In this document: piece after piece, positions 5,745-48,876 of the stretch
Numbering within the stretch: position 1 is the first letter of the stretch
Layout of the letters: each line of letters opens with the position of its first letter
NCBI GenBank assembly: GCA_030610855.1
Contig: JAUWQY010000002.1
Span: 24,082 to 88,081, forward strand
DNA: 64,000 nt
Reading direction: 5' to 3'
From: Dehalococcoidia bacterium
GTDB lineage: Bacteria; Chloroflexota; Dehalococcoidia; GIF9; AB-539-J10
Position numbers and translations under genes: made by a program
Notes under the pieces: model-generated
The model's database searches: none
Seen by the model: only the letters and a program-made list of their open reading frames with translations
Told to the model about the DNA's origin: nothing

Positions 5745-6443
5745 TTGGTTCAGAATGATAAGATGGAGGGAGATTTGAAACCACAACTGATTGCGATAGA
5801 CGGTCCTGTGGCAGTCGGCAAGAGCACTGTAGGCTCAATGCTAGCAAGAAGACTGGGCTATGTTTTCTTCGATACAGGTATGATATATCGAGCGTTTACC
5901 TGGAAGGTTCTCAAATCGGGTGTTCCTCCGAGAGACGAAGAGAAGATATGTCAGTTGGCAAACACGACCAAATTTGAGTTTGTCGCCGTACAGGAATGGC
6001 TTCTCTCACCCCTCATTGATGGCGAAGATGTCTCCTCCAAGCTGCTCTGCCCTGAAGTAGAAGAACAGGTTCCCCTGACATCGAAGATAGCCGGAGTACG
6101 CCAAGCACTGGTATTGGAACAACGCAGATTGGCCAGGCGAGGAAAGGTGGTCATGGCAGGAAGGGACATTAGCACAGTTGTCCTGCCCTGGGCAGAACTG
6201 AAGATCTTCCTCACGGCTTCCACCGAAGAAAGGGCCAAGCGCCGTTACAGGGAACTATTGGCGCGAGGGGTGAATGCGAATCTGGAAACCGTAATCGGCG
6301 ACCTGAAGAGACGAGATGAGATGGATATCCGTAGAGCCATCTCGCCACTTAAACCCGCTGAGGACGCCATAATAATCAATACAGAGGGACTTAGCCTAGA
6401 GCAAGTCGTGGACAAGATTTACGCTCTGGCGGCAGATCTATGA
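5745..6443 (+). CDS. cmk: cytidylate kinase
   Basis: 232 aa; P-loop IAIDGPVAVGKST; Cmk-like organisation; overlaps the next gene by 4 nt. Confidence 0.9.
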   Translation: MVQNDKMEGDLKPQLIAIDGPVAVGKSTVGSMLARRLGYVFFDTGMIYRAFTWKVLKSGVPPRDEEKICQLANTTKFEFVAVQEWLLSPLIDGEDVSSKLLCPEVEEQVPLTSKIAGVRQALVLEQRRLARRGKVVMAGRDISTVVLPWAELKIFLTASTEERAKRRYRELLARGVNANLETVIGDLKRRDEMDIRRAISPLKPAEDAIIINTEGLSLEQVVDKIYALAADL

Positions 6444-7090
6444 CCTTCTCTCAGAAGCTTCTCTTGACGGTATTCAGGCCTTTGCTCAATACCCTCTTCT
6501 GCTGGGAAGTGGTAGGAAGAGAAAATGTGCCCTTGACTGGTTCACTCATACTGGCAGCCAACCATGTGCACGTCCTTGATCCCGTCTTTCTAGCGTTTGG
6601 CTTTCCACGCTGGATTAACTTCATGGCAAAGGAAGAACTCTTTCGATCTCCCTTTTTGAGACCCTATCTTCGCTGGGCCGGATCTTTCTCCATACGTCGT
6701 GGAGGGAAAATCAGGGAGAAACAAGAGGTGCTTAAGAACGCCGCCGATGCACTGGAAAGAGGATCAATGCTCGGAGTGTTCCCGGAGGGTAGCCGAAGCC
6801 GCGACGGAAGACTTAGAAAGGCCAAGCCAGGCTGCGCAGTCATAGCTTCACAAACAGGTGTCCCGGTTCTTCCCGTCGGCGTCGTCGGCACAGACAGGAT
6901 TAAGGGCATAAACTGGCTATGGAAGCGCCCCGGCATAGTTGTCAACATCGGCAAACCTTTCACGCTCCCTCCGACTCATGGCAAGGCAGGCAAATCGCAA
7001 AGGCAATTGTTGACCACACGAATAATGACGGAAATCGCCGCCCTTCTGCCGCCAGAATATCAAGGCGCATACAGAGAACATGAAGATTGA
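6440..7090 (+). CDS. plsC: 1-acyl-sn-glycerol-3-phosphate acyltransferase
   Basis: 216 aa; acyltransferase HX4D motif (NHVHVLD) and FPEGSRS motif; cmk-plsC linkage is common. Confidence 0.85.
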   Translation: MTFSQKLLLTVFRPLLNTLFCWEVVGRENVPLTGSLILAANHVHVLDPVFLAFGFPRWINFMAKEELFRSPFLRPYLRWAGSFSIRRGGKIREKQEVLKNAADALERGSMLGVFPEGSRSRDGRLRKAKPGCAVIASQTGVPVLPVGVVGTDRIKGINWLWKRPGIVVNIGKPFTLPPTHGKAGKSQRQLLTTRIMTEIAALLPPEYQGAYREHED

Positions 7091-7922
7091 GAAAGCTGAA
7101 AAACTGGGCCTGTGCTTCGGCGTCAGGCGAGCCATCAAGCTGCTGAAAGAGGCGGTTGATAAGTATGGAGAGATAGAAACCCTTGGGCCTCTGGCACACA
7201 ACCGCCTGCTCGTGGAAGCACTGGCCGATCTAGGAGTGAAGCCCATAAAGCATCTCGACGGAGCTCAAGGCAGATTCCTGGCTATCACAACTCATGGTGT
7301 AAGCCCACTGGTATTGTCTGAGATCATGGCTCGTCATATTCATATCATTGACACCACCTGCCCGATAGTTCGCAAAGCGCAGGACACCGCCAGGGAACTA
7401 GCCGAGGCCGGTTTTGAAGTCATCATCTTTGGGGAAGCACAGCACTCCGAGGTGAAAGGATTGCTAGGCTGTACAGGACAAAAAGGTATAGCCGCTCTCA
7501 ACATGAAGCAGATAGATAGCTGGGGAAAATCACCATCGCGCCTGGGTATCATCTCCCAGACAACCCAGACGCGAACTGCCTTTATCGAATTTGTGGGGCA
7601 GCTTGTGGATATGGTTGGTCCTGAGATCAAGGAAATGCGCCTTGTCAACACTTTATGTCAAGTAACACAGGCACAACAGGAGGCTGCCATGAGACTAGCT
7701 CGCAGAAGTCAGATAATGGTAGTGATAGGCAGTGGCAACAGTGCCAATGCCAGGCATCTTGTCGATATATGCTCATCTCTCGTGGAAACTCACCTGGTAG
7801 AAACGGCAGACGAGGTTGATGAATCCTGGTTCGCGGGCAAGCATCACGTTGGCATCACCGCAGGAGCCTCCACCCCAGATGAAGCTGTGGAGGAGTTGAT
7901 AGCCAAGTTGAGGTCCTTATGA
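7080..7922 (+). CDS. ispH: 4-hydroxy-3-methylbut-2-enyl diphosphate reductase
   Basis: 280 aa; LytB/IspH family N-terminus (KIEKAEKLGLCFGVRRAI) and conserved Cys-containing blocks. Confidence 0.9.
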   Translation: MKIEKAEKLGLCFGVRRAIKLLKEAVDKYGEIETLGPLAHNRLLVEALADLGVKPIKHLDGAQGRFLAITTHGVSPLVLSEIMARHIHIIDTTCPIVRKAQDTARELAEAGFEVIIFGEAQHSEVKGLLGCTGQKGIAALNMKQIDSWGKSPSRLGIISQTTQTRTAFIEFVGQLVDMVGPEIKEMRLVNTLCQVTQAQQEAAMRLARRSQIMVVIGSGNSANARHLVDICSSLVETHLVETADEVDESWFAGKHHVGITAGASTPDEAVEELIAKLRSL

Positions 7923-8450: not shown

Positions 8451-8499
8451 CAACCTGAAGGTGGGGACTACCCACTTTTTTGTTAATAGGAAACAGAGG

Positions 8500-9849
8500 A
8501 TGAAAACTGAACTTAAGGCTGCGATTACTCAGCTTTCGGCTGAGAGGAACTTGCCCAGAGAGGTGGTCCTGGCTGCTTTGGAATCGGCGCTGGCCTCAGC
8601 ATACAAGAAGGATACAGCCGCTCCGGAACAAGATGTTCTGGTAAAAGTTGACCCTAACGCTGGCGAAATCGACTTCTATATTCAAAAGGTCGTCGTTGAG
8701 CCGGTTATCAATCCAAATCGCGAAATCTCCGTCGATGAGGCGCGAAAACTGCGGCCTACAGCACAGATAGGCGATGTAGTAAGCATAGAATTCACGCCCA
8801 GGAGTATTGGCCGTATTGCTGCTCAAGCGGCAAAGCAGGTCGTGCTCCAGAGGTTACGGGAGGCAGAGCAGCGCGTTGTTTATGAAGAGTTCACCAACAG
8901 AGAAGGAGAGGTTGTTGCCGGCGCGATTCAGTTCATCGAACCTAATCGAATCTATGTCAGACTGAATAGAACCGAAGCGATACTGCCTTCGAATGAACAG
9001 GTTCCTAATGAGCATTATCACAGAGGCCAGCGACTTAAGTTCTATCTTCTCGAGATAGTCCAGGGGGGCAAAGGGCCTCAGATAATAGTTTCGCGCTCTC
9101 ATCCGAACCTGATACGCCGGTTGTTTGAGCTCGAAATACCCGAAGTTCACAACGGGCTTGTGGAGTTAAAGGCCGTTGCCCGCGAGGCTGGACATCGGAC
9201 CAAAGTGGCGGTGGCTACTACTCAAGAAAACGTTGACCCCGTGGGTTGCTGTCTTGGTCCTCGGGGCATAAGGCTGCAGAGTATTATCAATGAACTACAT
9301 GGCGAGAAAATAGATGTAATCCAGTGGCATAGCGACCCGAGAGTGTTCATCTCTAACGCCCTCGGCCCGGCTCAGGTAGCAAGCACCAGAGTTGATGAAG
9401 AAAGAAAGGTGGCAACCGCGGTTGTCCCCGATAAGCAGCTGTCTCTAGCCATTGGCAAAGAGGGACAAAATGCCAGGTTAGCCGCAAAACTCACACGCTG
9501 GCGGCTCGATATCAAGAGCGTCTCCGCTATCGAGGCTGAAAAGGCCGTCGCACAAGAGCCAGAAGCGGCAGCCGAAGCCCTTCTCCCTGAAATCGTAGAA
9601 GAGGAGTCACCCGAAGCAGAGCCGGTTGAGGAGACCGGTGTGGAGGAACCGATCGAATTTGCCACCCTCTTCGAGGCTCCGCCTGAGACGCGTGAACAAA
9701 AACAGATTCGCTTTGCCGAAGAGGTCTTACGGAATACGTTGAAAGCAGAAAGGCCGGACAAGGCGAAAAGCGGCACCAAAGGTAAAGGAAGAGGAGCGAG
9801 ACATAAAGAGCAAACGGACGGTTTCTGGGTTGAAGAACTCGAGGAATAG
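8500..9849 (+). CDS. nusA: transcription termination/antitermination factor NusA
   Basis: N-terminus MKTELKAAITQLSAERNLPREVVLAALESALASAYKK matches the NusA N-terminal domain; S1 and KH regions present; acidic C-terminal tail. The ORF-track start at 8461 (GTG) is probably an upstream extension. Confidence 0.9.
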   Translation: MKTELKAAITQLSAERNLPREVVLAALESALASAYKKDTAAPEQDVLVKVDPNAGEIDFYIQKVVVEPVINPNREISVDEARKLRPTAQIGDVVSIEFTPRSIGRIAAQAAKQVVLQRLREAEQRVVYEEFTNREGEVVAGAIQFIEPNRIYVRLNRTEAILPSNEQVPNEHYHRGQRLKFYLLEIVQGGKGPQIIVSRSHPNLIRRLFELEIPEVHNGLVELKAVAREAGHRTKVAVATTQENVDPVGCCLGPRGIRLQSIINELHGEKIDVIQWHSDPRVFISNALGPAQVASTRVDEERKVATAVVPDKQLSLAIGKEGQNARLAAKLTRWRLDIKSVSAIEAEKAVAQEPEAAAEALLPEIVEEESPEAEPVEETGVEEPIEFATLFEAPPETREQKQIRFAEEVLRNTLKAERPDKAKSGTKGKGRGARHKEQTDGFWVEELEE

Positions 9850-10117
9850 GCATCTGCCTCAGCGTACTTGCATAGCTTGCCGGCGGATCGACGAGAAGAA
9901 GGGCTTGATTCGCCTGGTACGCACCGGAGATGGAGTGGTCGAGGTAGACGTGTCTGGCAAGAAGGCGGGCAGGGGTGCTTACCTATGCCCCAGGAAAGCT
10001 TGTTGGGAAATGGCGCTGAAGAAGAATCGCCTGGAATATACTCTACGCACGAAAATCTGCGAGGAGAATCGCCAAATCCTGGGTGAGTATAGCCATAAGT
10101 CGCTGGAGGAAAGCTAG
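9830..10117 (+). CDS. ylxR: YlxR-like (DUF448) RNA-binding protein
   Basis: 95 aa; RTCIACRR ... GRGAYLCP motif typical of YlxR; canonical position between nusA and infB. Confidence 0.75.
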   Translation: MKNSRNRHLPQRTCIACRRIDEKKGLIRLVRTGDGVVEVDVSGKKAGRGAYLCPRKACWEMALKKNRLEYTLRTKICEENRQILGEYSHKSLEES

Positions 10118-10119
10118 AT

Positions 10120-11871
10120 TTGACCGATAATAGATCGAACCTGAAGGAAGATCCGCTGCAAGTTGAGCTTCCGCCTTCGATAACTGTGAGGCAAATGGCC
10201 GACGTGCTAAACGTGGAGCCTGTGAGGATAATCAAGCAACTCATGCGCAAAGGCGTCATGGCCAACGTTAACCAGGTCATCGACTTTGATACAGCAAGTA
10301 CAATAGCTGCGGACATGGGCTATCATGCCAGAGCAGCAATAGAGCGTAGAGCTTCACGTTCGCGAAAGGAAGCAGGAGAAGGGAAGCTGTCGACTCGTCC
10401 TCCAGTGGTTACCGTCATGGGGCATGTCGACCATGGCAAGACCACCCTCCTCGATGTCATCAGAAAGACCAATGTGACTGCTCATGAGGCAGGAGCCATT
10501 ACCCAACATATAGGTGCCTACCAAACAGTAGTGGACGGACGCAAAATCACATTTCTGGATACGCCGGGACATGAGGCGTTCACAGCCATGAGAGCCCGGG
10601 GCGCACAAGCAACTGATATTGTAATCCTGGTAGTCGCTGCCGATGATGGCGTCATGCCCCAGACTGTGGAAGCTGTGGACCACGCCAAGGCTGCCAAGGT
10701 GCCTATAGTCGTTGCCATCAACAAGATTGATAAATCCAATGCTAATCCTGAGAATCTAAAACAACAGCTTGCCGATCTGGGTCTGGTTATTGAGGAGTGG
10801 GGCGGGGACACCGTTTGTGTACCCATATCAGCCAAGCAAGGACAGGGCATATCAGACTTGCTGGAAAACCTGTTCTTAGTTGCTGACATACTGGAACTGA
10901 AAGCTGATCCTGATAGCCCCGCAGAAGGAGTGATCCTTGAGGCTAAGCTGGACAAAACTAAAGGTCCTTTAGCTACCTTTCTCGTTCAGAGGGGCACTCT
11001 CAGACGAGGCAATACTGTGGTAGCTGGAGATGCTTGGGGAAGAGTAAAAGCCATGTTTGATGACAAAGGGAACCAAGTTCACAAGGCCGGACCGTCCGCT
11101 CCGGTAGAAGTCCTCGGCCTGAACGAGGTGGCAAGGTCAGGAGATCTTTTTGCTGTGCTTCCTGATGAGCGTGAAGCCCGGAGCATCGTGGAAAAGCAAA
11201 AACACACCAGGGCTCGCGCTATTCTGAGTTTGACTGCGCTTTCCAGCCAGATAAGTGATGGTCAGATAAAGGAACTGAACATAGTCCTGAAGACCGATGT
11301 CGAGGGCAGTATTGAACCCATAAAGACTTCACTGGAGAGGTTGAGCACTGAGAAGGTGAAGACAAGAGTTATTCATGCTGCCAGCGGGAGTATAACAGAG
11401 AGCGATGTACTTCTGGCCTCAGCTTCAAAAGGCATCATCATCGGTTTTGACACTCCCATCTCTCCCGGAGCAGTGCAGCTAGCCAACGCAGAGGCGGTGG
11501 GCATCCAGACCTATGACGTGATTTACAGGCTGATAGAGGACATGGATAAGACGTTGAAGGGGATGCTTGAGCCGACTTATGCTGAAGTACTCAGCGGGAG
11601 GGCTGAGGTGAGAGCCGTTTTCCCCAGCAGTAAGGCAGGCAAGATAGCCGGAGTCTATGTTATGGAAGGAAAGATACGGCGGGATGCCCAGGTTAGGATA
11701 CTGCGCCAGAATAAGACCATCGGCGAATCTCGGGTCTCCAGCTTGAAGCGTTTTACAGAGGACGTCTCTGAGGTCTCCGCTGGTCTCGAATGCGGCCTTG
11801 GTATAGAGGGAAGTGCCGATTTCCAGATTGGTGATATCATTGAGTCTTACCGAAAGGAAAGAGTGGGCTAA
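10120..11871 (+). CDS. infB: translation initiation factor IF-2
   Basis: 583 aa; TTG start; GTP-binding domain (GHVDHGKTTLLD, DTPGHEAF, NKID); short N-terminus of the IF-2 type. Confidence 0.95.
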   Translation: MTDNRSNLKEDPLQVELPPSITVRQMADVLNVEPVRIIKQLMRKGVMANVNQVIDFDTASTIAADMGYHARAAIERRASRSRKEAGEGKLSTRPPVVTVMGHVDHGKTTLLDVIRKTNVTAHEAGAITQHIGAYQTVVDGRKITFLDTPGHEAFTAMRARGAQATDIVILVVAADDGVMPQTVEAVDHAKAAKVPIVVAINKIDKSNANPENLKQQLADLGLVIEEWGGDTVCVPISAKQGQGISDLLENLFLVADILELKADPDSPAEGVILEAKLDKTKGPLATFLVQRGTLRRGNTVVAGDAWGRVKAMFDDKGNQVHKAGPSAPVEVLGLNEVARSGDLFAVLPDEREARSIVEKQKHTRARAILSLTALSSQISDGQIKELNIVLKTDVEGSIEPIKTSLERLSTEKVKTRVIHAASGSITESDVLLASASKGIIIGFDTPISPGAVQLANAEAVGIQTYDVIYRLIEDMDKTLKGMLEPTYAEVLSGRAEVRAVFPSSKAGKIAGVYVMEGKIRRDAQVRILRQNKTIGESRVSSLKRFTEDVSEVSAGLECGLGIEGSADFQIGDIIESYRKERVG

Positions 11872-11897: not shown

Positions 11898-12245
11898 ATG
11901 AGCAGGCGAAGTGAACGAACAAGCAAGCTTATCCAACGGGAGATCAGCGAACTGCTCGAGCGTGACGTCAGTGACCCCAGGCTTAGCAGGCTTATCTCAG
12001 TAACAGAAGTGACGCTTTCACCCGATCTCAGGCATGCTAAGGTGTTTGTTAGCACCCTGGGTAGCGAGATAAACAAGGAGGATATGCTGGCAGGCTTTAA
12101 CAAGGCTTCAGGATTCTTGCGCAAGGAACTTGCGTTGCACCTGAAATTGAGATATACGCCGCAACTCAGCTTTCATTATGATGATTCCATTGAGCGAGGA
12201 GCGAAGTTACTCAAGTTGATCGGGGAACTAACCACCACTGAATAG
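11898..12245 (+). CDS. rbfA: ribosome-binding factor A
   Basis: 115 aa; RbfA family (RTSKLIQREISELL ... VTEVTLSPDLRHAKVFVS). Confidence 0.9.
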   Translation: MSRRSERTSKLIQREISELLERDVSDPRLSRLISVTEVTLSPDLRHAKVFVSTLGSEINKEDMLAGFNKASGFLRKELALHLKLRYTPQLSFHYDDSIERGAKLLKLIGELTTTE

Positions 12246-12282
12246 CTGTATTCGTGTTCAACCGGGACTTCGTCGAAGGTAT

Positions 12283-12312
12283 TGACATTGGGATATACAA
12301 ATCTGTATAAAT
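12283..12312 (+). promoter_or_regulatory. putative sigma70 promoter (TTGACA-17-TATAAA) with about 230 nt leader before ino1
   Basis: TTGACA at 12283-12288; TG-extended TATAAA at 12306-12311. Confidence 0.35.
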
Positions 12313-12544
12313 TGGCACATGAAGAGAAACCTGAGTGCGTCCCGGTCCGAGATTCCGGCGGTTGTCAGCGGATGCATATGGTCTCAAATGCAGCGCAGAG
12401 AGACAGATGATAGATGCCCAGAGCAAGACCATTAAGGACGCGAGACTATCAATTCAGGGAATCTGTTCTGTGCGCGGAACGAATGTATCTGGAATGGTTG
12501 GCGCTTGATTCACATAGCAGGTTTTCCTCAGACATGAAACGGAG

Positions 12545-13675
12545 GTGAGAATGGGAGCAATAAACGTAGCCATCATAGGTGTCGGCAACTGCGCCTCTTC
12601 TTTGGTGCAGGGAGTCCGTTACTATAAGAATGCCAAGGAAAATGAATCTGTTCCCGGTCTGATGCATGTCAACCTGGGAGGCTATCATATAGCCGACATA
12701 AACTTCGTGGCAGCCTTCGATATCGATAAGAACAAAGTGGGCAAGGATTTGGCTGAGGTCATTTTCACCAAGCCAAATAACACTGTTAAGTTCTGTGATG
12801 TACCTAAGACAGGCGTCCGAGTTGAGCGGGGCATGACTCATGACGGACTGGGCATCTATCTGTCCAAAATCATCACCAAGGCGCCAGGTCCCACTGCCAA
12901 CATTGTAGAGATACTCAGAAAGACCAAAACCGACGTGGTGGTTAGCTATCTGCCTGTAGGAAGCGAGGAGGCCACGAAATGGTATGTGGAGCAGATACTG
13001 GCCGCCGGTTGTAGCTTCGTCAACTGCATACCTGTTTTCATTGCACGCGAACCTTATTGGCAGAATCGCTTTGCAGAGCGCGGACTGCCCGTTATCGGCG
13101 ATGATATCAAATCCCAGGTCGGCGCCACCATAACTCATCGAGTGTTAACCAGGCTCTTCCGTGACCGCGGAGTCAAACTAGAGCGGACATACCAGCTTAA
13201 CTTCGGTGGCAATACCGACTTCTACAATATGCTTGAACGACAGCGGCTGGAATCCAAGAAGATCTCCAAGACCGATGCTGTGACCTCACAGTTAGACTAT
13301 GTTCTCGATCCTGACAACATCCATATCGGTCCCAGTGATTATGTGCCCTGGCTGACTGACCGCAAGTTCTGCCACCTGAGAATGGAGGGGCGCACCTTCG
13401 GCGATGTCCCTTTGAACCTGGAACTGAAGCTGGAGGTATGGGATAGCCCTAATTCAGCCGGGGTAGTTATCGATGCCATAAGATGCTGCAAACTAGCCCG
13501 GGACCGCGGCTTAAGCGGGACCATTGTGGGGCCTTCGGCCTACTTTATGAAATCTCCGCCCATTCAGTATTCTGACGAGGAAGCTCGCACAAGGACCGAG
13601 GAATTCATCGCAGGACAAGAGCAGGAATGTCCTGTCTCTCTGCCTGAACTGGAGCCAGTCGAGGTTGAGGGATAG
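12545..13675 (+). CDS. ino1: myo-inositol-1-phosphate (inositol-3-phosphate) synthase
   Basis: 376 aa; near-collinear with actinobacterial/archaeal short MIPS: [70 protein letters not shown]. Confidence 0.9.
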
Positions 13676-13734
13676 GAGCCTTTCCGCCGCAGGTGCCAGC
13701 TTCAAATGATCCAGCCTGAAAGTAAACCTGTTAC

Positions 13735-14685
13735 ATGACTTCAGTCAGGGCGACTCACTACGTCACACGTAACAAGCGATCTGAGGTCTCGCTCTCCACT
13801 ATGTGGGCTAAAGGAAGGTTTGCCCACATGGCAGGATTTGCCTCCAGAGCTGAAGAGCTGGGATTCACTCACATAGAAGCAAATCACTGGATTTCTCCGC
13901 AAATGCTCAGTGAACTCCTTGCGACTGCGGTTCCGATTTCAAGCATTCATGATCCGTGTCCGGCGGGTTTGTCGTCCCGAGGCGTCCCGGTGGCTAACCT
14001 TTCCTTAAGTTCCTTAGATGAGCACGAACGTATGGAGGCCGTAAGCTTTACCAAGCAAACGATAGATCTTGGATCAAGTGTGAATGCCAGGGCTATTGTC
14101 GTCCATATGGGCGAAGTGCCGATTGATCTGGGTCTGCAGGGCAGACTGCACAAGCTCTACGCCGAGAGCCATGCTCAGACCAGAGAATATAGCAGGACCA
14201 AAGAAGAACTGGTTCGCCAGCGCACTTCGCGGGTTCGTCCTTACCTCGAGGCAGCGAGGAAAAGCCTTCGCGAGCTTAGCGAATATGGTCGGCAAAAGGG
14301 TATAATGCTGGGGCTTGAGACAAGATTTCATCTTCACGAGATACCGAATGTGGACGAGATGGCAGAGCTACTCAGCCAAGTGCCGGTAGCTCCGGTTGGC
14401 TACTGGCATGACATAGGACACGCCGAAGTGCAGCAGCGCCTCGGGTTTGGCTCACATGAAGAGTGGCTTTCACGATTCGCCCACAAGATGATCGGTATCC
14501 ATCTGCACGATGTTTTGGGTGTTTCCGATCACTATGCTCCAGGAAAAGGAGATGTGGACTGGGAAATGGTGGCCGAAAACCTGCCTCCAGGAATAGTGAA
14601 GGTCTGCGAAATCGGCCAATGGAATGATGAAGAGCAACTAGAGGGAGTGGTCAGTTTTCTTCGGAAGGCAGGCATAGTAGGCTAG
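13735..14685 (+). CDS. sugar phosphate isomerase/epimerase family protein (xylose-isomerase-like TIM barrel)
   Basis: 316 aa; TIM-barrel AP-endonuclease-2 / xylose-isomerase-like pattern (HIEANH, VVHMG, GLETRFH, HLHD). Start may be an internal Met; sits between ino1 and the CDP-alcohol phosphatidyltransferase. Confidence 0.65.
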   Translation: MTSVRATHYVTRNKRSEVSLSTMWAKGRFAHMAGFASRAEELGFTHIEANHWISPQMLSELLATAVPISSIHDPCPAGLSSRGVPVANLSLSSLDEHERMEAVSFTKQTIDLGSSVNARAIVVHMGEVPIDLGLQGRLHKLYAESHAQTREYSRTKEELVRQRTSRVRPYLEAARKSLRELSEYGRQKGIMLGLETRFHLHEIPNVDEMAELLSQVPVAPVGYWHDIGHAEVQQRLGFGSHEEWLSRFAHKMIGIHLHDVLGVSDHYAPGKGDVDWEMVAENLPPGIVKVCEIGQWNDEEQLEGVVSFLRKAGIVG

Positions 14686-14698
14686 CGGGAAAGGCAGG

Positions 14699-15298
14699 AT
14701 GAGTTTAGCAGATATCAGACGGAGTGTAGCGGATCGTATTACGTCTCCTCTGGTTGGGATTCTGAATAGGGGACCAATAACGCCGAATGCCCTTACCCTC
14801 ATCAACCTCGCTCTAAGCATGGTTGCTGCCTATTTTATCGCTACGGGTCACTTCCTTCCGGGCGGGGTTCTGGTTCTAGTTTCAGGTCTCTTTGACATTC
14901 TTGACGGAGCATTAGCCCGCGTCACCAGGAAAAGCACAAAGTTGGGCGCCATCCTGGATTCAACCGTTGACCGCATTGCTGAAGCAGCAATACTATGCGG
15001 TCTCTTAGTCTGGTACATACGGGACACAGCGCAGGGAAACATCCTGGAGATCATGCTTGTCTATGCCGTTCTGGTTGGTTCCTTTCTGATCAGTTACATA
15101 AGGGCCAGGGCAGAAGGGCTCGGCTGGCAATGCCAGGTTGGCTTGTTTACTAGAGCAGAACGGGTTATAGTATTAGTGATAGGTTTGCTGATAAACCAGA
15201 TCTTCATTGCATTATGTATCTTAGCGGTCTTTGTCTCCATCACTGTAGCGCAAAGGTTGGTTCACCTGTGGAAGCAGGCAAGAACCGGAGGTGATTAA
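14699..15298 (+). CDS. CDP-alcohol phosphatidyltransferase (probable phosphatidylinositol-phosphate synthase-like)
   Basis: 199 aa; multi-TM; canonical D-G-x2-A-R-x8-G-x3-D-x3-D motif (DILDGALARVTRKSTKLGAILDSTVDRIAE). Confidence 0.85.
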   Translation: MSLADIRRSVADRITSPLVGILNRGPITPNALTLINLALSMVAAYFIATGHFLPGGVLVLVSGLFDILDGALARVTRKSTKLGAILDSTVDRIAEAAILCGLLVWYIRDTAQGNILEIMLVYAVLVGSFLISYIRARAEGLGWQCQVGLFTRAERVIVLVIGLLINQIFIALCILAVFVSITVAQRLVHLWKQARTGGD

Positions 15299-16591
15299 GT
15301 GGCTGTCATAGCAGTTGTGGGAGGTCAATGGGGTGACGAAGGTAAAGGAAAGATAGTTGATCTCTTAGCTGAAAAAGCGGACATGGTTGTTCGCTTCTCC
15401 GGAGGAGACAACGCTGGCCACACTGTTATCAACCCTTACGGTGAGTTCAGACTGCATCTCATCCCTTCAGGTATCTTCCACCCGCGGGTGACTTGCATTA
15501 TCGGCAATGGCGTAGCTATCAACCCGGCTGTGCTTCTTACAGAAATGCAGGAACTGCAAGAGCACGGTATCGATACAGGTCGCCTGTTCATCAGTGACCG
15601 CGCTCACCTCATCATGCCCTATCACACCCTTCTCGATGAATTGGAAGAGGAACGGCGTAGCAAAGGAGCGATAGGTACTACACTCAAAGGAATCGGCCCT
15701 GTCTTCGCCGATAAAGTAGCTCGCCTGGGAATCCGTGCCGGAGATTTGTTAGACAAAGAAATGTTTCGGAACCGCTTGAGAGCAGCGCTTGAGTTTAAGA
15801 ATACTGTTCTGACAAAAGCATACGAAGTTGCACCGCTGTCGCTGGAAGAGATCTATGACCAATACTGCCACTATGGGCAGCAACTGGCCCCCCTCATCAG
15901 GGATACCACGTCCACAGTTCGCGAAGCGGTGACGAAAGGACACTCAGTCTTGTTAGAGGGTGCCCAAGGGGCTTTGCTTGACCCCGACTTTGGCACCTAC
16001 CCCTATGTGACCTCCTCTTCACCATTAGCCGGGGCAGGCTGTATTGGAGCAGGCCTCGGCCCGAGAGAAATCGATCGCGTGATGGCGGTGTTTAAAGCAT
16101 ACAACACCAGAGTCGGGGCGGGACCTATGCCCACAGAACTCAAAGACGAAGTTGGCAACTTCATACGTGAAAAGGCCCGCGAGTACGGTGCCACCACGGG
16201 AAGGCCGCGAAGATGTGGTTGGTTCGATGCTGTCGCAGGCCGCTTCAGCGTTCAGATAAATGGCCTTAGCGATATAGCGCTGACTCACCTGGATATCTAT
16301 GACGGTTTTCCTTCAATCAAAGTATGCACTGCCTATAGATTCAATGACGAGGTCCTGACTTCTTTCCCCAGCGATGCTGCCGTTCTAGAACAGTGCCAAC
16401 CTGTCTACGAGGAATTGGACGGCTGGCAACAATCAATAAGCGAGACTCGGGATTTTGAGAGGCTGCCGACAGAAGCCCGTGATTATATGTCCCGGCTTGA
16501 AGATCTCCTCTCTTGCCCCATCAGTCTTGTTTCCGTGGGACCGGATCGGAAGCAGATAATACCGGTCAAATGGATCAGCCCTTGGGAATAG
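15299..16591 (+). CDS. purA: adenylosuccinate synthetase
   Basis: 430 aa; GTG start with GGAGGT SD; QWGDEGKGK P-loop, GGDNAGHTV motif. Confidence 0.95.
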   Translation: MAVIAVVGGQWGDEGKGKIVDLLAEKADMVVRFSGGDNAGHTVINPYGEFRLHLIPSGIFHPRVTCIIGNGVAINPAVLLTEMQELQEHGIDTGRLFISDRAHLIMPYHTLLDELEEERRSKGAIGTTLKGIGPVFADKVARLGIRAGDLLDKEMFRNRLRAALEFKNTVLTKAYEVAPLSLEEIYDQYCHYGQQLAPLIRDTTSTVREAVTKGHSVLLEGAQGALLDPDFGTYPYVTSSSPLAGAGCIGAGLGPREIDRVMAVFKAYNTRVGAGPMPTELKDEVGNFIREKAREYGATTGRPRRCGWFDAVAGRFSVQINGLSDIALTHLDIYDGFPSIKVCTAYRFNDEVLTSFPSDAAVLEQCQPVYEELDGWQQSISETRDFERLPTEARDYMSRLEDLLSCPISLVSVGPDRKQIIPVKWISPWE

Positions 16592-40795: not shown

Positions 40796-41845
40796 ATGCA
40801 GTACGAAAAGGTCTATCTGGAGTCGTTTGGTTATGAACTCCCTGAGCATGTCGTCACATCCTTGAGCCTGGAAGAAAGACTGGCCCCAATATACGACAAG
40901 TTGCATCTTTCCTACGGGCGCCTGGAATTGTCGACTGGAATCCGAGAACGGCGATTCTGGGATGATGATGTGACGCCCAGCCAGGCCAGTATCAGAGCGG
41001 CAGAAAAGGCCATCAACAAATCCGGGATCAACAAAGAGGATATCGGATGCCTGCTCCATACTTCTGTATCCCGCGATTTCCTGGAGCCGGCGACAGCTAC
41101 CGTGGTTCATGATTCTTTGGGACTCCCTCCCGCAGCCATGATTTTCGACATCTCCAATGCCTGTCTGGGTTTCATCAACGGCATGGTAACTCTGGCCAAT
41201 ATGATTGAGCTGGGTCAGGTAAAAGCAGGCGTTGTCGTTGGCTGTGAGAACAGCAAACGGCTTATTGACACAACCATCATTAAACTCTTGAGAGACCCTG
41301 ACATCACCAGAGCTAAGCTCAAACTCGCCTTTGCCACTCTAACTTTGGGGTCCGGAGCAGTGGCGGCGGTGCTAACCCACTCCTCCATGTCGCAAGACGG
41401 TCATAAGCTCCTTGGTGGCGTAACGCGCGCTGCTTCACAACATAATGGTCTTTGTCGTATAGAAGCCGATGCTTCTTTCCTCGACCTGCATGAGCTCCCG
41501 GATATGCGCACGGACCAAAAACGAATCCTGGAAAATGGACTGAGATTGGCGCCTGACACATGGGAGGCCATAAAACAAGAGCTTGAATGGAGAAACTCCG
41601 ACGTAGATAAGGTTTTTGCTCACCAGGTTAGCGCCTCGCATAGTAAGCTGTTATTCGAGGCTTTGGGGCTGGATACTGCAAGAGACTTCTCCACCCTGGA
41701 ATATCTGGGAAATGTTGGGTCGGTTTCCCTTCCCATTACCATGGCTATCGGAATTGACCAGGGTCGCCTTAACACTGGCGACAAAGTTGCTGCGCTCGGG
41801 ATTGGCAGCGGCCTGGTTTGTCTTATGCTGGGTCTGCAATGGTAG
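40796..41845 (+). CDS. 3-oxoacyl-ACP synthase III (FabH-like) family protein
   Basis: 349 aa; thiolase-fold KAS III pattern with the active-site Cys in the DISNACLGF context and a C-terminal GN(V/T)GS-like block. Confidence 0.85.
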   Translation: MQYEKVYLESFGYELPEHVVTSLSLEERLAPIYDKLHLSYGRLELSTGIRERRFWDDDVTPSQASIRAAEKAINKSGINKEDIGCLLHTSVSRDFLEPATATVVHDSLGLPPAAMIFDISNACLGFINGMVTLANMIELGQVKAGVVVGCENSKRLIDTTIIKLLRDPDITRAKLKLAFATLTLGSGAVAAVLTHSSMSQDGHKLLGGVTRAASQHNGLCRIEADASFLDLHELPDMRTDQKRILENGLRLAPDTWEAIKQELEWRNSDVDKVFAHQVSASHSKLLFEALGLDTARDFSTLEYLGNVGSVSLPITMAIGIDQGRLNTGDKVAALGIGSGLVCLMLGLQW

Positions 41846-41959
41846 CACAGGGAACGACCCCTGCGAGATGAGCTCAGGAGAACACACCTTCAGACTGTGA
41901 CGCAATTGGATTGCTCCGGGCCGCGCCCGTATCTACATTCTTGAGCGGAGTTCTACTCT

Positions 41960-43228
41960 ATGGTGGCAAAGAAGAGTGATGAGAGACGAATTGTAATAAC
42001 CGGGGTTGGCCTCACGGCGCCAAACGGAAATAACCTGACGGAATTTCGGCGGAGTCTCCTCGACGGCAAATCCGGGGTGCAGAAATTCGAGGTCCGCTAC
42101 ATGGGTGAGGTGCTGGCCGGTATATGTCACTTCGACCCGCTGAAGTATCAGAAGAAGAAGGAATTGCGGCGTGGGACGAGGGCAGGCTCTATCGCGATTT
42201 ACTGCGCCCAAGAAGCAATCGCTAACGCTAAGCTAGACCTTGCATGCCTCGACAAATCGAGGATCGGTGTTTACCTCGGGATTACTGAGCATGGCACCGT
42301 GGAGACCGAAAACGAAATCTATGAGATCAAGCAATTCGACTACGATGTGAAATACTGGTCTCACCATCATAATCCAAGGGTGGTAGCCAATAATCCCGCC
42401 GGTGAAGTCACCTTGAATATGGGCATTACTGGACCGCACTATACTCTGGGGGCCGCATGTGCCGGCGGCAACCTCGGGCTGATACAGGGCTTACAGATGC
42501 TGTTGCTGAACGAAGTCGATTTGGCTCTGGGTGGCGGGGTTTCGGAAAGTACCGCTTCCTTCGGTATTTTTGCTGGCTTCAGAAGTGAAGGGGCTCTGGC
42601 TTCCCATCCAAACCCTGAGAAGGCATGCCGTCCCTTTGACAAGGATCGGAATGGCGTGGTTGTTGCAGAAGGCGGCGGTATTTTTGTTCTGGAAAGACTG
42701 AGCGATGCGCAGAAAAGGGGAGCCAGGATCTACGGCGAAATCGTGGGCTATGCTATCAACTCGGATGCGTTGGACTTTATTTTGCCCAGCGCAGAAAGAC
42801 AGGTTGAGTGCATGAAGCTTTCTCTTAACAAAGCCGGCATATCTCCCGAAGATATCGATATCATCAATACCCACGGGACGGGCACTGCTGAAGGAGACCC
42901 TGTGGAGTGCCAGGCAATTAGGGAGGTCTTCGGCGAATATCCTCATGCTTATATGAACAACACCAAGAGCTTCATTGGTCACGCCATGGGTGCCGCCGGC
43001 GCTTTGGAACTGGCTGGTAACTTACCCTCTTTTGAGGACTATATCGTCCATCCGACGATCAATCTGGACCACCTGGATCCTGAGTGTAATCTCAACCATC
43101 TGGTTATCAATGAACCAAAGAGGATTGACAAGGTTGACTATATATTGAATAATTCCTTCGGAATGTTGGGCATCAATTCGGTTGTTATCGTAAAAAGATT
43201 TGAGCCACAAAACTGCAAGCATTCTTGA
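41960..43228 (+). CDS. beta-ketoacyl-ACP synthase (FabF/FabB-like KAS I/II)
   Basis: 422 aa; RRIVITGVG N-terminus; active Cys (GAACAGG) and the two His (HGTGT, GHAMGAAG) present. Confidence 0.9.
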   Translation: MVAKKSDERRIVITGVGLTAPNGNNLTEFRRSLLDGKSGVQKFEVRYMGEVLAGICHFDPLKYQKKKELRRGTRAGSIAIYCAQEAIANAKLDLACLDKSRIGVYLGITEHGTVETENEIYEIKQFDYDVKYWSHHHNPRVVANNPAGEVTLNMGITGPHYTLGAACAGGNLGLIQGLQMLLLNEVDLALGGGVSESTASFGIFAGFRSEGALASHPNPEKACRPFDKDRNGVVVAEGGGIFVLERLSDAQKRGARIYGEIVGYAINSDALDFILPSAERQVECMKLSLNKAGISPEDIDIINTHGTGTAEGDPVECQAIREVFGEYPHAYMNNTKSFIGHAMGAAGALELAGNLPSFEDYIVHPTINLDHLDPECNLNHLVINEPKRIDKVDYILNNSFGMLGINSVVIVKRFEPQNCKHS

Positions 43229-43248
43229 AATAGATAGATTGGGGGTAC

Positions 43249-43500
43249 ATGACCAAGGAACAAATTAGAGCCACGCTTCTCGAAATCATAGCCCAAATCA
43301 TACCGGACGAAGACCTGAGCAATCTGAAGGGTGACGTCGCGATACGAGAACAAGTGGAACTCGACTCAATGGACTTCTTAGATATCGTTATGGAGTTGCG
43401 AAAGCGCTTCGGTATCGAAGTACCCGAGAGTGACTACACAGAACTAGCCACCCTGGATGGCTCTGTAGCCTATCTGGAGCCACGGATGAAAGACCTCTAG
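43249..43500 (+). CDS. acyl carrier protein
   Basis: 83 aa; phosphopantetheine-attachment serine in LDSMDFLDIV (DSL-like). Confidence 0.85.
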   Translation: MTKEQIRATLLEIIAQIIPDEDLSNLKGDVAIREQVELDSMDFLDIVMELRKRFGIEVPESDYTELATLDGSVAYLEPRMKDL

Positions 43501-43596
43501 TCCAGAGCGCCAGCAAGCCAGGAACAAAGGCCTTTGTCGCATTCTACCCGACGATTGAAGGTTGAGCTAGCCCTCGGTTTCTAGAAGAGCCTGCCC

Positions 43597-44982
43597 ATGC
43601 ATTATGATGTTCTGATTATCGGCGCCGGAATGTCTGGTCTTGCCGCTGGCATCAGATTAGCCTACTACGACAAGAAGGTCTGCATCGTCGAAAAGCATTA
43701 CCGTGTCGGAGGACTCAACTCGTTCTACAGCTTACGAGGACATAAACTCGACGTCGGCCTCCATGCCATGACCAATTATGTACCCGGGGATGCTAAATCA
43801 AGGCCGTTGCCCAGGTTGCTGCGACAGCTCAAGCTAAAAGCTGAAGATTTCGCCCTCTGCCCGCAACGCATGTCAGTAATCAGATTTCCCGACAAGACCC
43901 TGAGGTTTAATAACGACTTCAACTTCTTCGTGCAAGAGGTCGTCGACAGCTTTCCAGGACAAGCTGACAACTTCCAAAAGCTGCTTAAGACTACTCTTGA
44001 ATATGATGAATTGAACCTGTATGCCCAACCGGTTTCGGCTCGTGAGGTAGTGAGTTCTGTTATTTCCGACCCGCTCCTCACCGACATGATTTTCTGCCCG
44101 CTCATGTTCTACGGGAATCCCCAGGAGAACGACATGGAGTTCGGGCAGTTTGTTATCATGTTCAAGAGTATCTTCTGCGAAGGATTTGCCCGACCTCAGG
44201 ACGGCGTGCGCCAGATCCTTGACGTGCTGGTGAACAAATACAGAGGTTACGGCGGCGAACTGAAGATGAGGTGCGCGGTAACAAGTCTCAAATGCGCCAA
44301 CGGCAAGGTTGCATCAATCCTGCTCGAGAACGGTGAAGTCCTTACCGCTGACAGGATACTCTCATCGGCCGGTTACGTTGAAACCATGCAGCTGCTAGCC
44401 GACTCTGATTCTTCGGCAGTCAATCATCCAGTGGGTCAACTCTCATTTGTAGAGTCTATTCTGATTCTAGACAAAGAACCTGCCGAAATGGGCTATAATA
44501 CGACAATCACCTTTTACAATGATTCGGATAGATTTGCTTATCGAAAACCCGCGGAACTCGTTGATGTTTCCAGTGGTGTTATCTGTTGCCCGAATAACTT
44601 CGAACTAGAACATCCCTTGCCGGAGGGCATGATCAGAATAACTAACCTGGCTAACTTCGATCTCTGGAACAGCTTGAGTGAAGAAGAGTACAAGACCTGG
44701 AAAGCTGCCTGGCTGGAAACCACGCTCAAACAGGTGGTGAGATTCGTGCCCGATTTCCGTGACTCCATTATCTTCACCGATGTCTTCACTCCGAAAACAA
44801 TCCGCAGATTCACCGGCCATATAAATGGCGCGGTCTACGGGACACCGGACAAGATCAAGACGGGCGAGACTCAACTAGAGAACCTGTTCATCTGCGGAAC
44901 CGACCAGGGATTCCTCGGAATCGTTGGAGCAATGCTTAGCGGTATCTCGATGGCAAATCTTCACGTTTTGCAGAAGACCTAG
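43597..44982 (+). CDS. FAD-dependent oxidoreductase, phytoene desaturase (CrtI)-like family
   Basis: 461 aa; N-terminal dinucleotide fold DVLIIGAGMSGLAAG ... VGGL; CrtI/amine-oxidase-like length. Confidence 0.8.
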   Translation: MHYDVLIIGAGMSGLAAGIRLAYYDKKVCIVEKHYRVGGLNSFYSLRGHKLDVGLHAMTNYVPGDAKSRPLPRLLRQLKLKAEDFALCPQRMSVIRFPDKTLRFNNDFNFFVQEVVDSFPGQADNFQKLLKTTLEYDELNLYAQPVSAREVVSSVISDPLLTDMIFCPLMFYGNPQENDMEFGQFVIMFKSIFCEGFARPQDGVRQILDVLVNKYRGYGGELKMRCAVTSLKCANGKVASILLENGEVLTADRILSSAGYVETMQLLADSDSSAVNHPVGQLSFVESILILDKEPAEMGYNTTITFYNDSDRFAYRKPAELVDVSSGVICCPNNFELEHPLPEGMIRITNLANFDLWNSLSEEEYKTWKAAWLETTLKQVVRFVPDFRDSIIFTDVFTPKTIRRFTGHINGAVYGTPDKIKTGETQLENLFICGTDQGFLGIVGAMLSGISMANLHVLQKT

Positions 44983-45091
44983 TCAGAATCCTGATGATAA
45001 GTACGAGCAACAGGAAAGCTCCTCCTAAATCCCCCTCTTAGGATAAGAGGGGCAAGGGGAGTTATGGGACTCCGATGGCAAAGGAAGAAGC

Positions 45092-46495: not shown

Positions 46496-46505
46496 GGCGC
46501 AGGAA

Positions 46506-47246: not shown

Positions 47247-47247
47247 G

Positions 47248-47673: not shown

Positions 47674-47837
47674 CATGTAGTTAGGCTGTTCAGGAATGTA
47701 GTTGCCCAATTCATTGGGCGGTTCGTGCCTGATAAATCGGGCAACGACAAGAATGCCCGAATCTGAGCCGGAAAGCGAGATGATCTAGTTCAGATAGATG
47801 GGTGATACTTCATGTGCTTGTAATACTGGGTAATAAC

Positions 47838-47990: not shown

Positions 47991-48068
47991 AAGAAGTGTC
48001 TCTAATCACGTGAACGAGTACACGAAATTGAACGGTCCAATATTGGAAGGTATAATAAGGAGCATTAT

Positions 48069-48869: not shown

Positions 48870-48876
48870 CAAACCG

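Follow-up and report, generated by a model that had tools for sequence, protein, structure and literature searches.

A proposed phosphatidylinositol module with a candidate TIM-barrel headgroup phosphatase in a Dehalococcoidia bacterium

Results

Within the 64-kb stretch of Dehalococcoidia DNA analysed here (the window), the genes for a myo-inositol-1-phosphate synthase (hereafter MIPS), a xylose-isomerase-like TIM-barrel protein and a phosphatidylinositol-phosphate synthase (PIPS) are co-oriented and closely packed, and we propose that they form a phosphatidylinositol module (Table 1). A preliminary description of this DNA had placed three reading frames as an insertion between the nusA-infB-rbfA run and purA; the frames are present on the plus strand where it put them, and Pfam identifies the flanking genes as named, with E-values for the locus genes that are far beyond chance. 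MIPS and the TIM-barrel gene are separated by 59 nt and the TIM-barrel gene and PIPS by 13 nt, while the purA start directly abuts the PIPS stop (0 nt), and co-transcription of purA is probable. For MIPS, the ATG at 12551, giving 374 aa, is the more likely true start, because it is preceded by GGAGG at 12541-12545 and the homologues have 374 aa. The TIM-barrel start at 13735 is the sole start codon 5' of a conserved SLSTMW peptide. The spacer between rbfA and MIPS, which measures 48-303 nt among relatives, gave zero Rfam matches, and promoter and terminator scans yielded no excess over the shuffled expectation. Judged by Pfam annotation and neighbourhood, and setting the candidate TIM barrel aside, there is no phosphatase gene within or adjoining the cluster.

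Table 1. Genes of the locus and its flanks (positions in the window)
Feature	Position	Strand	Product or place	Evidence
nusA	8461-9849		upstream flank	Pfam
ylxR	9830-10117		upstream flank	Pfam
infB	10120-11871		upstream flank	Pfam
rbfA	11898-12245	+	upstream boundary, last of the nusA-ylxR-infB-rbfA run	Pfam PF02033, E 5.5e-36
MIPS	12545-13675	+	myo-inositol-1-phosphate synthase, 376 aa	Pfam PF01658 Inos-1-P_synth, E 2.5e-37
TIM barrel	13735-14685	+	xylose-isomerase-like, 316 aa	Pfam AP_endonuc_2, E 5e-17
PIPS	14699-15298	+	phosphatidylinositol-phosphate synthase, PIP/AIP type, 199 aa	Pfam PF01066 CDP-OH_P_transf, E 4e-19
purA	15299-16591	+	adenylosuccinate synthase, downstream boundary	Pfam PF00709, E 1.6e-179

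The MIPS protein scores 127.8 bits against PF01658 (cut-off 27) and matches M. tuberculosis Ino1 (PDB 1gr0) with an E-value of 1.7e-144 and 60.5% identity. Hereby, residues 6-357 are collinear with residues 16-367 of 1gr0, the N-terminal NAD-binding segment is identical in the two, and the collinearity previously claimed with actinobacterial and archaeal enzymes holds against this reference. The score against TIGR03450, the actinobacterial, mycothiol-linked INO1 model, amounts to 537.6 bits and stays below the equivalog cut-off of 638. Judged by its sequence, the protein is a MIPS, though one outside the actinobacterial equivalog.

In PIPS, which reaches 69.9 bits against PF01066 (cut-off 22), the signature D66-x2-D-G-x2-A-R...G-x3-D-x3-D91 occupies residues 66-91 (DILDGALARVTRKSTKLGAILDSTVD), so that the full CDP-alcohol transferase motif attributed earlier to the 199-aa protein is complete from D66 to D91. 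Among NCBIfam models, AIP synthase (158.3 bits, cut-off 180) and PIP synthase (154.2 bits, cut-off 170) score highest, both slightly under threshold and unable to tell whether the donor is CDP-DAG or CDP-archaeol; the models of other classes give 54.5 (DIPP synthase), 33.9 (ClsA), 29.6 (PgsA) and 26.1 bits (PssA). By these scores the transferase, whose class the preliminary description had left to be settled, ranks as a PIP/AIP synthase and not as a PgsA, PssA or DIPP synthase. Its solved relatives 6wm5, 6h53 and 5d92 are PIP synthases (E 1e-26 to 1e-21), the best being mycobacterial and Renibacterium enzymes. S132, R155 (within RAER) and R186 (within AQRL) have S132, R155 and R195 of the M. 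tuberculosis enzyme MtPIPS as their counterparts in the alignment; relative to MtPIPS, K135 is replaced by Arg and P153 by Ala. In MtPIPS, R155 and R195 bind the phosphate of inositol phosphate, and this pair is absolutely conserved in PIP synthases and missing from eukaryotic PI synthases (PMC4634129). A homologue search with PIPS returned only members of the same clade (72-94% identity) and therefore provides no outgroup information. With MIPS and a PIP/AIP-type transferase identified by family models and solved relatives, the inositol-phospholipid module of the preliminary description is borne out, and we consider it highly probable that the locus is a MIPS plus PIP-synthase module for an inositol lipid.

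The TIM barrel, which the preliminary description had left without an assigned role, belongs to a family that is indeed uncharacterised. Its Pfam domain and (beta/alpha)8 fold are those of the AP_endonuc_2/xylose-isomerase-like superfamily, and the closest solved relative of its family is MJ1311. Among 22 homologues (31-58% identity), H72, R99, H124, E195, D226, H229, H256, H258, H266 and E292 are invariant. These residues were compared with the trinuclear site of endonuclease IV (Endo IV, Nfo), which comprises nine ligands (H69, H109, E145, D179, H182, H216, D229, H231, E261), by L-INS-i alignment and strand topology. In this comparison, which used an approximate Nfo sequence, six of the nine ligands align directly (Nfo H109, D179, H182, H216, H231 and E261 to H124, D226, H229, H256, H266 and E292), and Nfo D229 falls on S264, next to the near-invariant D265. 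H72 and E195, which MAFFT did not align, are invariant and end the equivalent strands beta2 and beta4. When the TIM family was aligned to Nfo by hhalign in local mode, the match spanned 30 columns only (E 0.064), and the NCBIfam Nfo model gave no match to the TIM barrel. After the beta2 His, the family has D-P-C-P, with Pro-Cys-Pro conserved, where Endo IV has D-S-Y-L, and a helical insertion of about 40 residues between beta3 and beta4 carries an invariant Arg.

Four core ligands (E195, D226, H256, E292) are common to the TIM family and the epimerases. H72, H124, H258, D265 and H266 are additional invariant or near-invariant positions, which the epimerases lack and Endo IV and MJ1311 possess, and the HxHD...DH residues are missing from D-tagatose 3-epimerases. 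In the MJ1311 structure, nine of the nine Endo IV ligands are reportedly conserved. As far as alignments can tell, the invariant residues resemble the greater part of the Endo IV three-metal phosphoesterase site, and not the four-ligand site of ketose epimerases; we propose that the TIM barrel is a soluble, MJ1311-like putative metalloenzyme with endonuclease-IV-like metal ligands. In some members of the family the TIM barrel is fused to a HAD phosphatase. Genes around one such fusion (L084) encode a transporter and a Pit/PhoU phosphate transporter, together with HAD phosphatases, a PfkB kinase and a PEP-synthase-like protein, a neighbourhood that suggests phospho-compound metabolism and names no substrate. 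The HAD fusions and the Pit-type phosphate transporter with PhoU therefore point to small phospho-compounds, not DNA.

The order rbfA-MIPS-TIM-PIPS-purA was found in 58 complete and about 20 partial loci (two independent scans), with TIM and PIPS lying about 12-20 nt apart in the genome loci and with PIPS adjoining purA in every locus extending that far. Gene-order conservation is weak evidence when taken alone, because the clade that carries the trio keeps the flanking housekeeping genes too. The co-conservation on which the preliminary description had made its reading depend thus stands for about 60 related Dehalococcoidia loci, but the trio is not fixed, since the slot between MIPS and PIPS is variable. 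Relatives have there the TIM barrel, a GT4 glycosyltransferase, the two together, a relic of TIM, or no gene at all. MIPS directly adjoins PIPS in L104, L127 and L169; GT4 occupies the slot together with a TIM relic in L091, L092 and L111, without TIM in L122, L147 and L141/142, and with TIM also present in L026 and, partially, in L024 and L090. Because L104, L127, L169 and L111 keep MIPS-PIPS or MIPS-GT4-PIPS after TIM loss, the TIM barrel is not obligatory at the locus; the loss is one from the locus, and the rest of the genome may hold a copy.

The GT4 proteins of the slot form one orthologous group (60-89% identity), which has no member within the 64-kb window. In L023 the gene directly upstream of TIM is an ortholog (62-67% identity), and in L027 the same GT4, fused to a sugar-1-P nucleotidyltransferase, follows two genes after TIM, both loci being without MIPS or PIPS nearby. 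Because the GT4 of the MIPS-PIPS slot thus also adjoins TIM in two lineages without these genes, TIM, GT4, MIPS and PIPS appear to be linked. The best solved relatives of GT4 are 7qsg, 'D-inositol 3-phosphate glycosyltransferase' (E 1e-25), and a sucrose-phosphate-synthase-like protein, PDB names that may be automatic; the match to PimA has an E-value of 1.6e-12, and the score against the MshA equivalog is 115 bits, far under the cut-off of 462. The presence of GT4 suggests that the relatives carrying it may also make glycosylated inositol lipids.

TIM homologues of at most about 58-59% identity (50-odd loci) lie away from MIPS and PIPS, except in L026 and in a truncated match (L037). Their contexts include cdsA-dxr-rseP-(ispG)-TIM-proS, dnaJ-TIM, TIM-uppS and S21-TIM-Memo. 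The last of these, seen for the distant member P0223, is an uninformative housekeeping run, and the short contig of P0256 gives no usable context. Because distant homologues sit in housekeeping runs, the function of the family may be general and unrelated to inositol. Among 10 matches to an MJ1311 fragment, the two archaeal contexts that were read (L170, L171) contain no inositol genes.

Discussion

Prokaryotic phosphatidylinositol is made by a two-step synthesis, of which the second enzyme, the PIP/AIP phosphatase, is called unidentified (PMC4634129, PMC9385802); the sole genetically supported candidate is PgpA-like and comes from Bacteroides (PMC9246714). The preliminary description had listed a phosphatase as a known pathway step. 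However, the cluster has no such gene, and the enzyme is called unidentified outside Bacteroides (PMC4634129, PMC9385802, PMC9246714), which makes the TIM barrel the natural candidate. Accepting the homology-based, well-supported assignments of the first two steps, MIPS would cyclise glucose-6-phosphate to 1L-myo-inositol-1-phosphate, and PIPS, a membrane protein, would join CDP-diacylglycerol and inositol phosphate to yield phosphatidylinositol phosphate (PIP). The TIM barrel, with invariant His/Asp/Glu residues that resemble the Endo IV three-metal site and two invariant arginines besides, may then hydrolyse the monoester phosphate once the inositol is conjugated. In this reading, to which we assign a probability of roughly 0.4, the TIM barrel would be a headgroup phosphatase that converts PIP to phosphatidylinositol (PI) by removing the phosphate inherited from inositol-1-phosphate. 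In GT4-bearing relatives it may act also on a glycosylated inositol-phosphate product. The wider proposal that the MJ1311-like TIM family is a new class of inositol-3-phosphate headgroup phosphatase, perhaps also for glycosyl-inositol-phosphate, is more doubtful. No paper that we found connects PIP dephosphorylation with the TIM family or with Dehalococcoidia.

Somewhat unlikely, yet the best placed of the alternatives, is a housekeeping role of the TIM barrel with no connection to inositol, for instance as a divergent AP endonuclease or as another phosphoesterase for small molecules or for lipids or isoprenoids. A rearrangement would then have placed it between MIPS and PIPS in one Dehalococcoidia clade, with the phosphatase gene lying elsewhere. 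This would fit the distant homologues away from MIPS and PIPS (e.g. cdsA-dxr-rseP-ispG-TIM-proS), the three loci in which MIPS adjoins PIPS without TIM, and the conserved synteny of an entire region of housekeeping genes. Moreover, MJ1311 once figured among the predicted homologues of Endo IV (PMC2770678), and repair genes lie near TIM in two loci (PolX four genes away in L027, UvrB three genes away in L086). The independent TIM-GT4 linkage in L023, L027 and L026 is, however, not easily explained by chance, and the TIM-PIPS spacing (13 nt) is conserved. Against a role in DNA repair in particular, the HAD fusions and the phosphate-transporter context favour small molecules, the family carries the beta3-beta4 insertion of about 40 residues, Pro-Cys-Pro replaces the Endo IV Tyr-Leu, and the NCBIfam Nfo model finds no match.

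A phosphatase acting on a soluble product is improbable. Here, an MshA-like GT4 would make glycosyl-inositol-phosphate from an NDP-sugar and inositol-1-phosphate, and the TIM barrel would dephosphorylate it to glycosyl-inositol, or else would act as inositol monophosphatase. Synthase/phosphatase pairing is the rule for such solutes, the TIM protein is soluble, GT4 and TIM are adjacent without PIPS in L023 and L027, where the L027 GT4 is fused to the sugar-1-P nucleotidyltransferase, and the solved relatives of GT4 bear names of phosphosugar-acceptor enzymes (7qsg), with PimA a weaker match. Yet TIM is retained directly upstream of PIPS in the window, where GT4 is missing, GT4 scores far under the MshA cut-off (115 vs 462 bits), and an inositol monophosphatase would drain the substrate of PIPS.

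An isomerase or epimerase of the IolI/IolO/ketose-epimerase kind, altering the stereochemistry of inositol (phosphate) or supplying the sugar phosphate for MIPS, is slightly less probable still. The core ligands E195, D226, H256 and E292 are those of epimerases, the HAD-TIM fusions could be epimerase-phosphatase pairs, and the best NCBIfam match is IolO. The latter match is weak (31.4 bits, cut-off 300), as are those to psicose epimerase (18 vs 300) and fructoselysine epimerase (19 vs 305), and the invariant H72, H124, H258 and H266 are missing from the DTEase alignment. The role is disfavoured because inositol phosphate and PIP offer no carbonyl to act on, and the cluster has no dehydrogenase to create one. 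The isomerase/epimerase role suggested in the preliminary description thus finds no positive support, given Endo IV-like invariant residues and scores below the cut-offs. Its other alternative, a soluble solute of the di-myo-inositol-phosphate type in place of a lipid, is very improbable: the CDP-alcohol transferase group does include DIPP synthases and some related metagenomes come from sediments, but the DIPP synthase model gives PIPS 54.5 bits (cut-off 580) vs 154-158 for the PIP/AIP synthases, the nearest structures are PIP synthases, and PIPS is a single-domain protein in a cluster without a cytidylyltransferase domain or NTP-transferase gene to make CDP-inositol.

Compared to the mycobacterial PI pathway (Ino1, PgsA1/PIP synthase and the GT4 PimA), MIPS is 60% identical, PIPS has its nearest relatives among the mycobacterial enzymes and shares their catalytic Asp motif and inositol-phosphate arginines, and in relatives GT4 and the PIP synthase are clustered, just like pimA and pgsA1. 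The Dehalococcoidia module differs in its gene order and its place between rbfA and purA, in containing a TIM-barrel gene, which the mycobacterial operons lack, in a PIPS that scores 154 on the NCBIfam PIP synthase model, short of the cut-off of 170, and in a GT4 that is not demonstrably PimA (E 1.6e-12). The B. thetaiotaomicron cluster BT_1522-1526 likewise combines MIPS and PIPS with a third gene that completes the conversion of PIP to PI, a PgpA-like PIP phosphatase (Heaver 2022, PMC9246714); for Dehalococcoidia this completion is a proposal. The Bacteroides third gene (BT_1525) encodes a PgpA-family membrane phosphatase, whereas the TIM barrel is soluble and of unrelated fold; no match to the PgpA family was found for any of the three proteins, and the BT_1523-type synthase model gives PIPS 105 bits against a cut-off of 350. 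If the TIM barrel is a PIP phosphatase, it is a non-orthologous replacement of the PgpA type.

Methanocaldococcus jannaschii MJ1311p, whose structure is solved (PDB 3wqo, named 'D-tagatose 3-epimerase-like protein'), has about 21% identity to the TIM barrel and differs from the TIM family by the beta3-beta4 insertion with its invariant Arg. Relative to Endo IV, a three-zinc AP endonuclease, the family shows no detectable sequence-family membership and lacks the residues inserted into DNA; its HAD fusions and the putative lid formed by the insertion are signs of small phosphorylated substrates. Within the AP_endonuc_2 superfamily, a phosphoesterase acting on a small molecule has a precedent in the cobamide-remodelling phosphodiesterase CbiR (PMC7733943), whose His/Asp/Glu metal ligands are conserved. 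CbiR cleaves a diester, whereas a monoesterase is proposed for the TIM barrel, which scores 20.3 bits against the CbiR model (cut-off 105) and has no cobamide genes in its neighbourhood.

If the proposed phosphatase function is true, the TIM family would fill the missing PIP to PI step of Chloroflexota with a fold never before linked to lipid-headgroup dephosphorylation, and would provide a first function for the structurally solved orphan MJ1311 type. To our knowledge, no enzyme has been identified for the MshA2 step of mycothiol synthesis, and the TIM barrel might also serve an analogous step. Should the TIM barrel be unrelated to inositol, an ordinary MIPS plus PIPS module remains. Whatever the role of the TIM barrel, the locus is an indication of inositol-lipid synthesis in abundant sediment Dehalococcoidia, which matters for the group's unusual cell envelope and for the reading of environmental lipid biomarkers.

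Composition of the inositol locus

As the preliminary description had stated, three open reading frames lie on one strand at 12545-15298 of the window, with nusA, ylxR, infB and rbfA upstream and purA downstream. They encode a myo-inositol-1-phosphate synthase (Ino1, here MIPS), a xylose-isomerase-fold TIM-barrel protein (here TIM) whose closest solved relative is MJ1311, and a CDP-alcohol phosphatidyltransferase (here PIPS) in which the motif reported earlier is complete (D66-x2-D-G-x2-A-R...G-x3-D-x3-D91). MIPS is collinear over its full length with M. tuberculosis Ino1 (PDB 1gr0; E 1.7e-144, 60.5% identity, 352 residues). The nearest genome, the MAG E29_bin54, encodes proteins 92-97% identical to those of the window; this genome and the names of the homologues assign the window to Dehalococcoidia (Chloroflexota).

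Coordinates of the features discussed (window positions, or positions within the related locus named)
Feature	Position	Strand	Description
cmk, plsC-like, ispH	5745-7922	+	cytidylate kinase, acyltransferase and ispH, just upstream of nusA
rbfA-MIPS spacer	12246-12544		~300 nt
TTGACA	12282-12287		first half of sigma-70-like pair
TATAAA	12306-12311		second half of sigma-70-like pair, after 18-nt spacer
MIPS	12545-13675	+	376 aa; Inos-1-P_synth, E 2.5e-37
TIM	13735-14685	+	316 aa; AP_endonuc_2 / xylose-isomerase-like TIM barrel, E 5e-17
PIPS	14699-15298	+	199 aa; CDP-alcohol phosphatidyltransferase, E 4e-19
PIPS-purA junction	15296-15301		purA start GTG at 15299
FAS-II-like set	40796-49467	+	Pfam assignments
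GT4	L026:5821-6912		between MIPS and TIM
GT4	L147:3726-4820		between MIPS and PIPS
GT4	L023:5721-6827		upstream of TIM
GT4	L027:3320-5638		downstream of TIM
TIM relic	L111:4336-4995		between GT4 and PIPS
TIM relic	L091:4668-4790		between GT4 and PIPS
TIM relic	L092		between GT4 and PIPS
HAD phosphatase-TIM fusion	L084:5537-8683		fusions ~560-573 aa; also P0144, P0148, P0153, P0160, P0187

Using NCBIfam models, the transferase scores 158 bits as archaetidylinositol-phosphate (AIP) synthase and 154 bits as phosphatidylinositol phosphate (PIP) synthase, slightly under both equivalog cut-offs, and the two models do not separate CDP-diacylglycerol (CDP-DAG) from CDP-archaeol as donor. With only 30 bits for PgsA and 26 bits for PssA it does not group with these ordinary enzymes, and the inositol-lipid reading thus stands. 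Among solved structures, the PIP synthases of mycobacteria and Renibacterium match it best. In the PIP-synthase alignment R155 and R186 correspond to R155 and R195 of MtPIPS, two arginines that contact the phosphate group of the substrate inositol phosphate and set PIP synthases apart from eukaryotic PI synthases (PMC4634129); S132 is kept as well. Given the bacterial host and the plsC-like acyltransferase nearby, CDP-DAG is the expected donor. Judged from the encoded proteins, the locus is probably (at roughly 85%) a MIPS-PIPS inositol-lipid module. By homology, MIPS would convert glucose-6-phosphate into inositol-1-phosphate, which PIPS would join to CDP-DAG to yield PIP; TIM might then hydrolyse PIP to phosphatidylinositol (PI) and phosphate.

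The purA start codon begins at the base right after the PIPS stop codon, and this adjacency is kept in all related loci (L001-L169) that reach purA, even where MIPS, TIM and the glycosyltransferase GT4 described below are variably present. A lipid gene is in this way tightly coupled to a purine gene. The rbfA-MIPS spacer, 48-303 nt long across relatives, gave no match in an Rfam search; by eye it contains a sigma-70-like pair, which is not among the matches listed by a promoter scan. Genes for CMP/CTP and phospholipid precursors (cmk, plsC-like) lie within 6 kb of the module. Elsewhere in the window, a FAS-II-like set comprising KAS III, KAS I/II, ACP, a phosphopantetheinyl transferase, two phytoene-desaturase-like FAD oxidoreductases, a ketoreductase-type SDR and an enoyl-ACP-reductase-like SDR looks, by its domains, like a specialised lipid/polyene pathway rather than core fatty-acid synthesis.

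Conservation of the locus and its variable slot

A first scan with TIM as query, covering one genome per species, returned at least 571 relatives, nearly all from Chloroflexota. The run infB-rbfA-MIPS-TIM-PIPS-purA is complete in 25 loci in which the TIM homologue is at least ~58% identical, with a TIM-PIPS gap of about 12-20 nt. More distant homologues occupy 50-odd loci, in which MIPS and PIPS are both absent within 7 kb, apart from L026 and the truncated match L037. These distant homologues mostly reside in cdsA-dxr-rseP-(ispG)-TIM-proS, while others adjoin dnaJ, uppS or iPGM/PRK genes. The same-strand placement inside the cdsA-proS run recurs in many Chloroflexota (L034, L041, L029, L038, L058, L059, L069, L082 and others) and could reflect a lipid/isoprenoid link or mere synteny.

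In a second scan, of metagenomes with the PIPS of an edge-of-clade locus as query, the MIPS-PIPS slot proved variable among relatives. The window's MIPS-TIM-PIPS-purA order is complete in 58 loci from both scans together, with additional partial ones. Elsewhere the slot holds a GT4-family glycosyltransferase followed by TIM (L026; partial L024, L090), GT4 with a TIM relic (L091, L092, L111), GT4 alone (L122, L147, L141/142) or nothing (L104, L127, L169), purA following PIPS in each type. Co-conservation of the trio, a point raised in the preliminary description, holds for the 58 complete loci, but among these relatives the trio is not fixed. In L111 the remnant ...AEVQQRLGF.S.E......HKM is joined in frame ahead of the PIPS start; the relics show that some lineages lost TIM at this position recently.

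The slot-borne GT4 proteins form one orthologous group (60-89% identical), which is absent from the 64-kb window. The same GT4 occurs immediately upstream of TIM in L023 (62-67% identity) and two genes downstream of TIM in L027, there fused to a sugar-1-phosphate nucleotidyltransferase (mannose-1-phosphate-guanylyltransferase-like domain); MIPS and PIPS are absent nearby in both. TIM, GT4, MIPS and PIPS thus adjoin pairwise in combinations that differ by lineage. This is stronger evidence for a functional link among the four than a gene order shared inside a single clade, since there the housekeeping genes on either side keep their places as well. The best solved relative of GT4 bears the name D-inositol-3-phosphate glycosyltransferase, which may be an automatic one. 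GT4 would place a sugar on the inositol headgroup, acting on PI in the manner of PimA or on inositol phosphate in that of MshA, and its presence in relatives suggests glycosylated inositol compounds in Dehalococcoidia.

Function of the TIM-barrel protein

An AlphaFold model of TIM, with 32 homologues as input, is confident (pLDDT 96.9). Across 22 homologues (31-58% identity, HAD fusions included) H72, R99, H124, E195, E208, D226, H229, H256, H258, H266 and E292 are invariant, and D259 and D265 nearly so. The family was aligned (MAFFT) with a sequence of E. coli endonuclease IV (Nfo) whose ligand numbering is consistent. In this alignment six of the nine trinuclear-zinc ligands of Nfo fall on invariant, identical TIM residues (Nfo/TIM: H109/H124, D179/D226, H182/H229, H216/H256, H231/H266, E261/E292). 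Nfo H69 and E145 are misaligned by MAFFT, and in the model the invariant TIM residues H72 and E195 are located at the ends of the corresponding strands, beta2 and beta4; Nfo D229 aligns beside D265, not on it. Unlike MJ1311, the family carries a basic helical insertion of ~40 residues between beta3 and beta4 with an invariant R163. Several homologues (32-40% identity) bear an N-terminal HAD phosphatase, and the fusion in L084 neighbours a second protein of HAD-HAD type, an RpiR regulator, a PhnU-like ABC transporter, a PhoU-like protein (PhoU_div), a PHO4 phosphate transporter, a PfkB kinase and a PEP-synthase-like protein. The active-site residues, the insertion, and the HAD fusions with their phosphate context point to a predicted metalloenzyme for small phosphorylated compounds, features that a plain sugar epimerase or DNA nuclease would fit poorly.

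The PIP phosphatase is given as unidentified in the PIP-synthase structural paper (PMC4634129) and in a 2022 review (PMC9385802), and an analogous Bacteroides cluster combines MIPS and PIPS with a PgpA-like PIP phosphatase (PMC9246714); B. thetaiotaomicron delta-BT_1525 accumulates PIP. Since the window's cluster contains no other phosphatase and the active site of TIM is phosphoesterase-like, we tentatively regard TIM as a candidate PIP phosphatase, at somewhat below even odds. Counting against this role, the greater part of the family is found among housekeeping genes and not near those for inositol, and in some lineages MIPS and PIPS have outlasted TIM at the locus. Together with the partial metal-site map and the archaeal MJ1311-like genes, which have no inositol context in the neighbourhoods examined (L170, L171), this makes a general function unrelated to inositol a serious rival, although one we hold to be less probable, as TIM is linked in L023 and L027 to the very GT4 found between MIPS and PIPS elsewhere. 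Should GT4 work like MshA, a soluble glycosyl-inositol-phosphate would call for this phosphatase chemistry as well; as the substrate of TIM in place of PIP it is unlikely. The isomerase or epimerase role proposed in the preliminary description appears slightly less likely still: inositol phosphate and PIP have no carbonyl, which in turn favours the phosphatase assignment, and what ketose 3-epimerases have in common with the TIM family is confined to the E-D-H-E core, its HxHD...DH block being absent from them. Synthesis of a di-myo-inositol-phosphate-type solute by the module is highly improbable, given 54 bits for DIPP synthase vs 154-158 and no cytidylyltransferase domain or gene at the module.

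Compared to known systems, the module belongs to the prokaryotic two-step PI pathway, with the actinobacterial version closest. The polar lipids given for cultured Chloroflexota already include PI (e.g. PMC12453558) and D. mccartyi expresses an abundant MIPS (PMC7918482), so that inositol lipids in this phylum are unsurprising. What is new is the presence of an MJ1311-like TIM barrel within the module, together with the network that links it to MIPS, PIPS and GT4.
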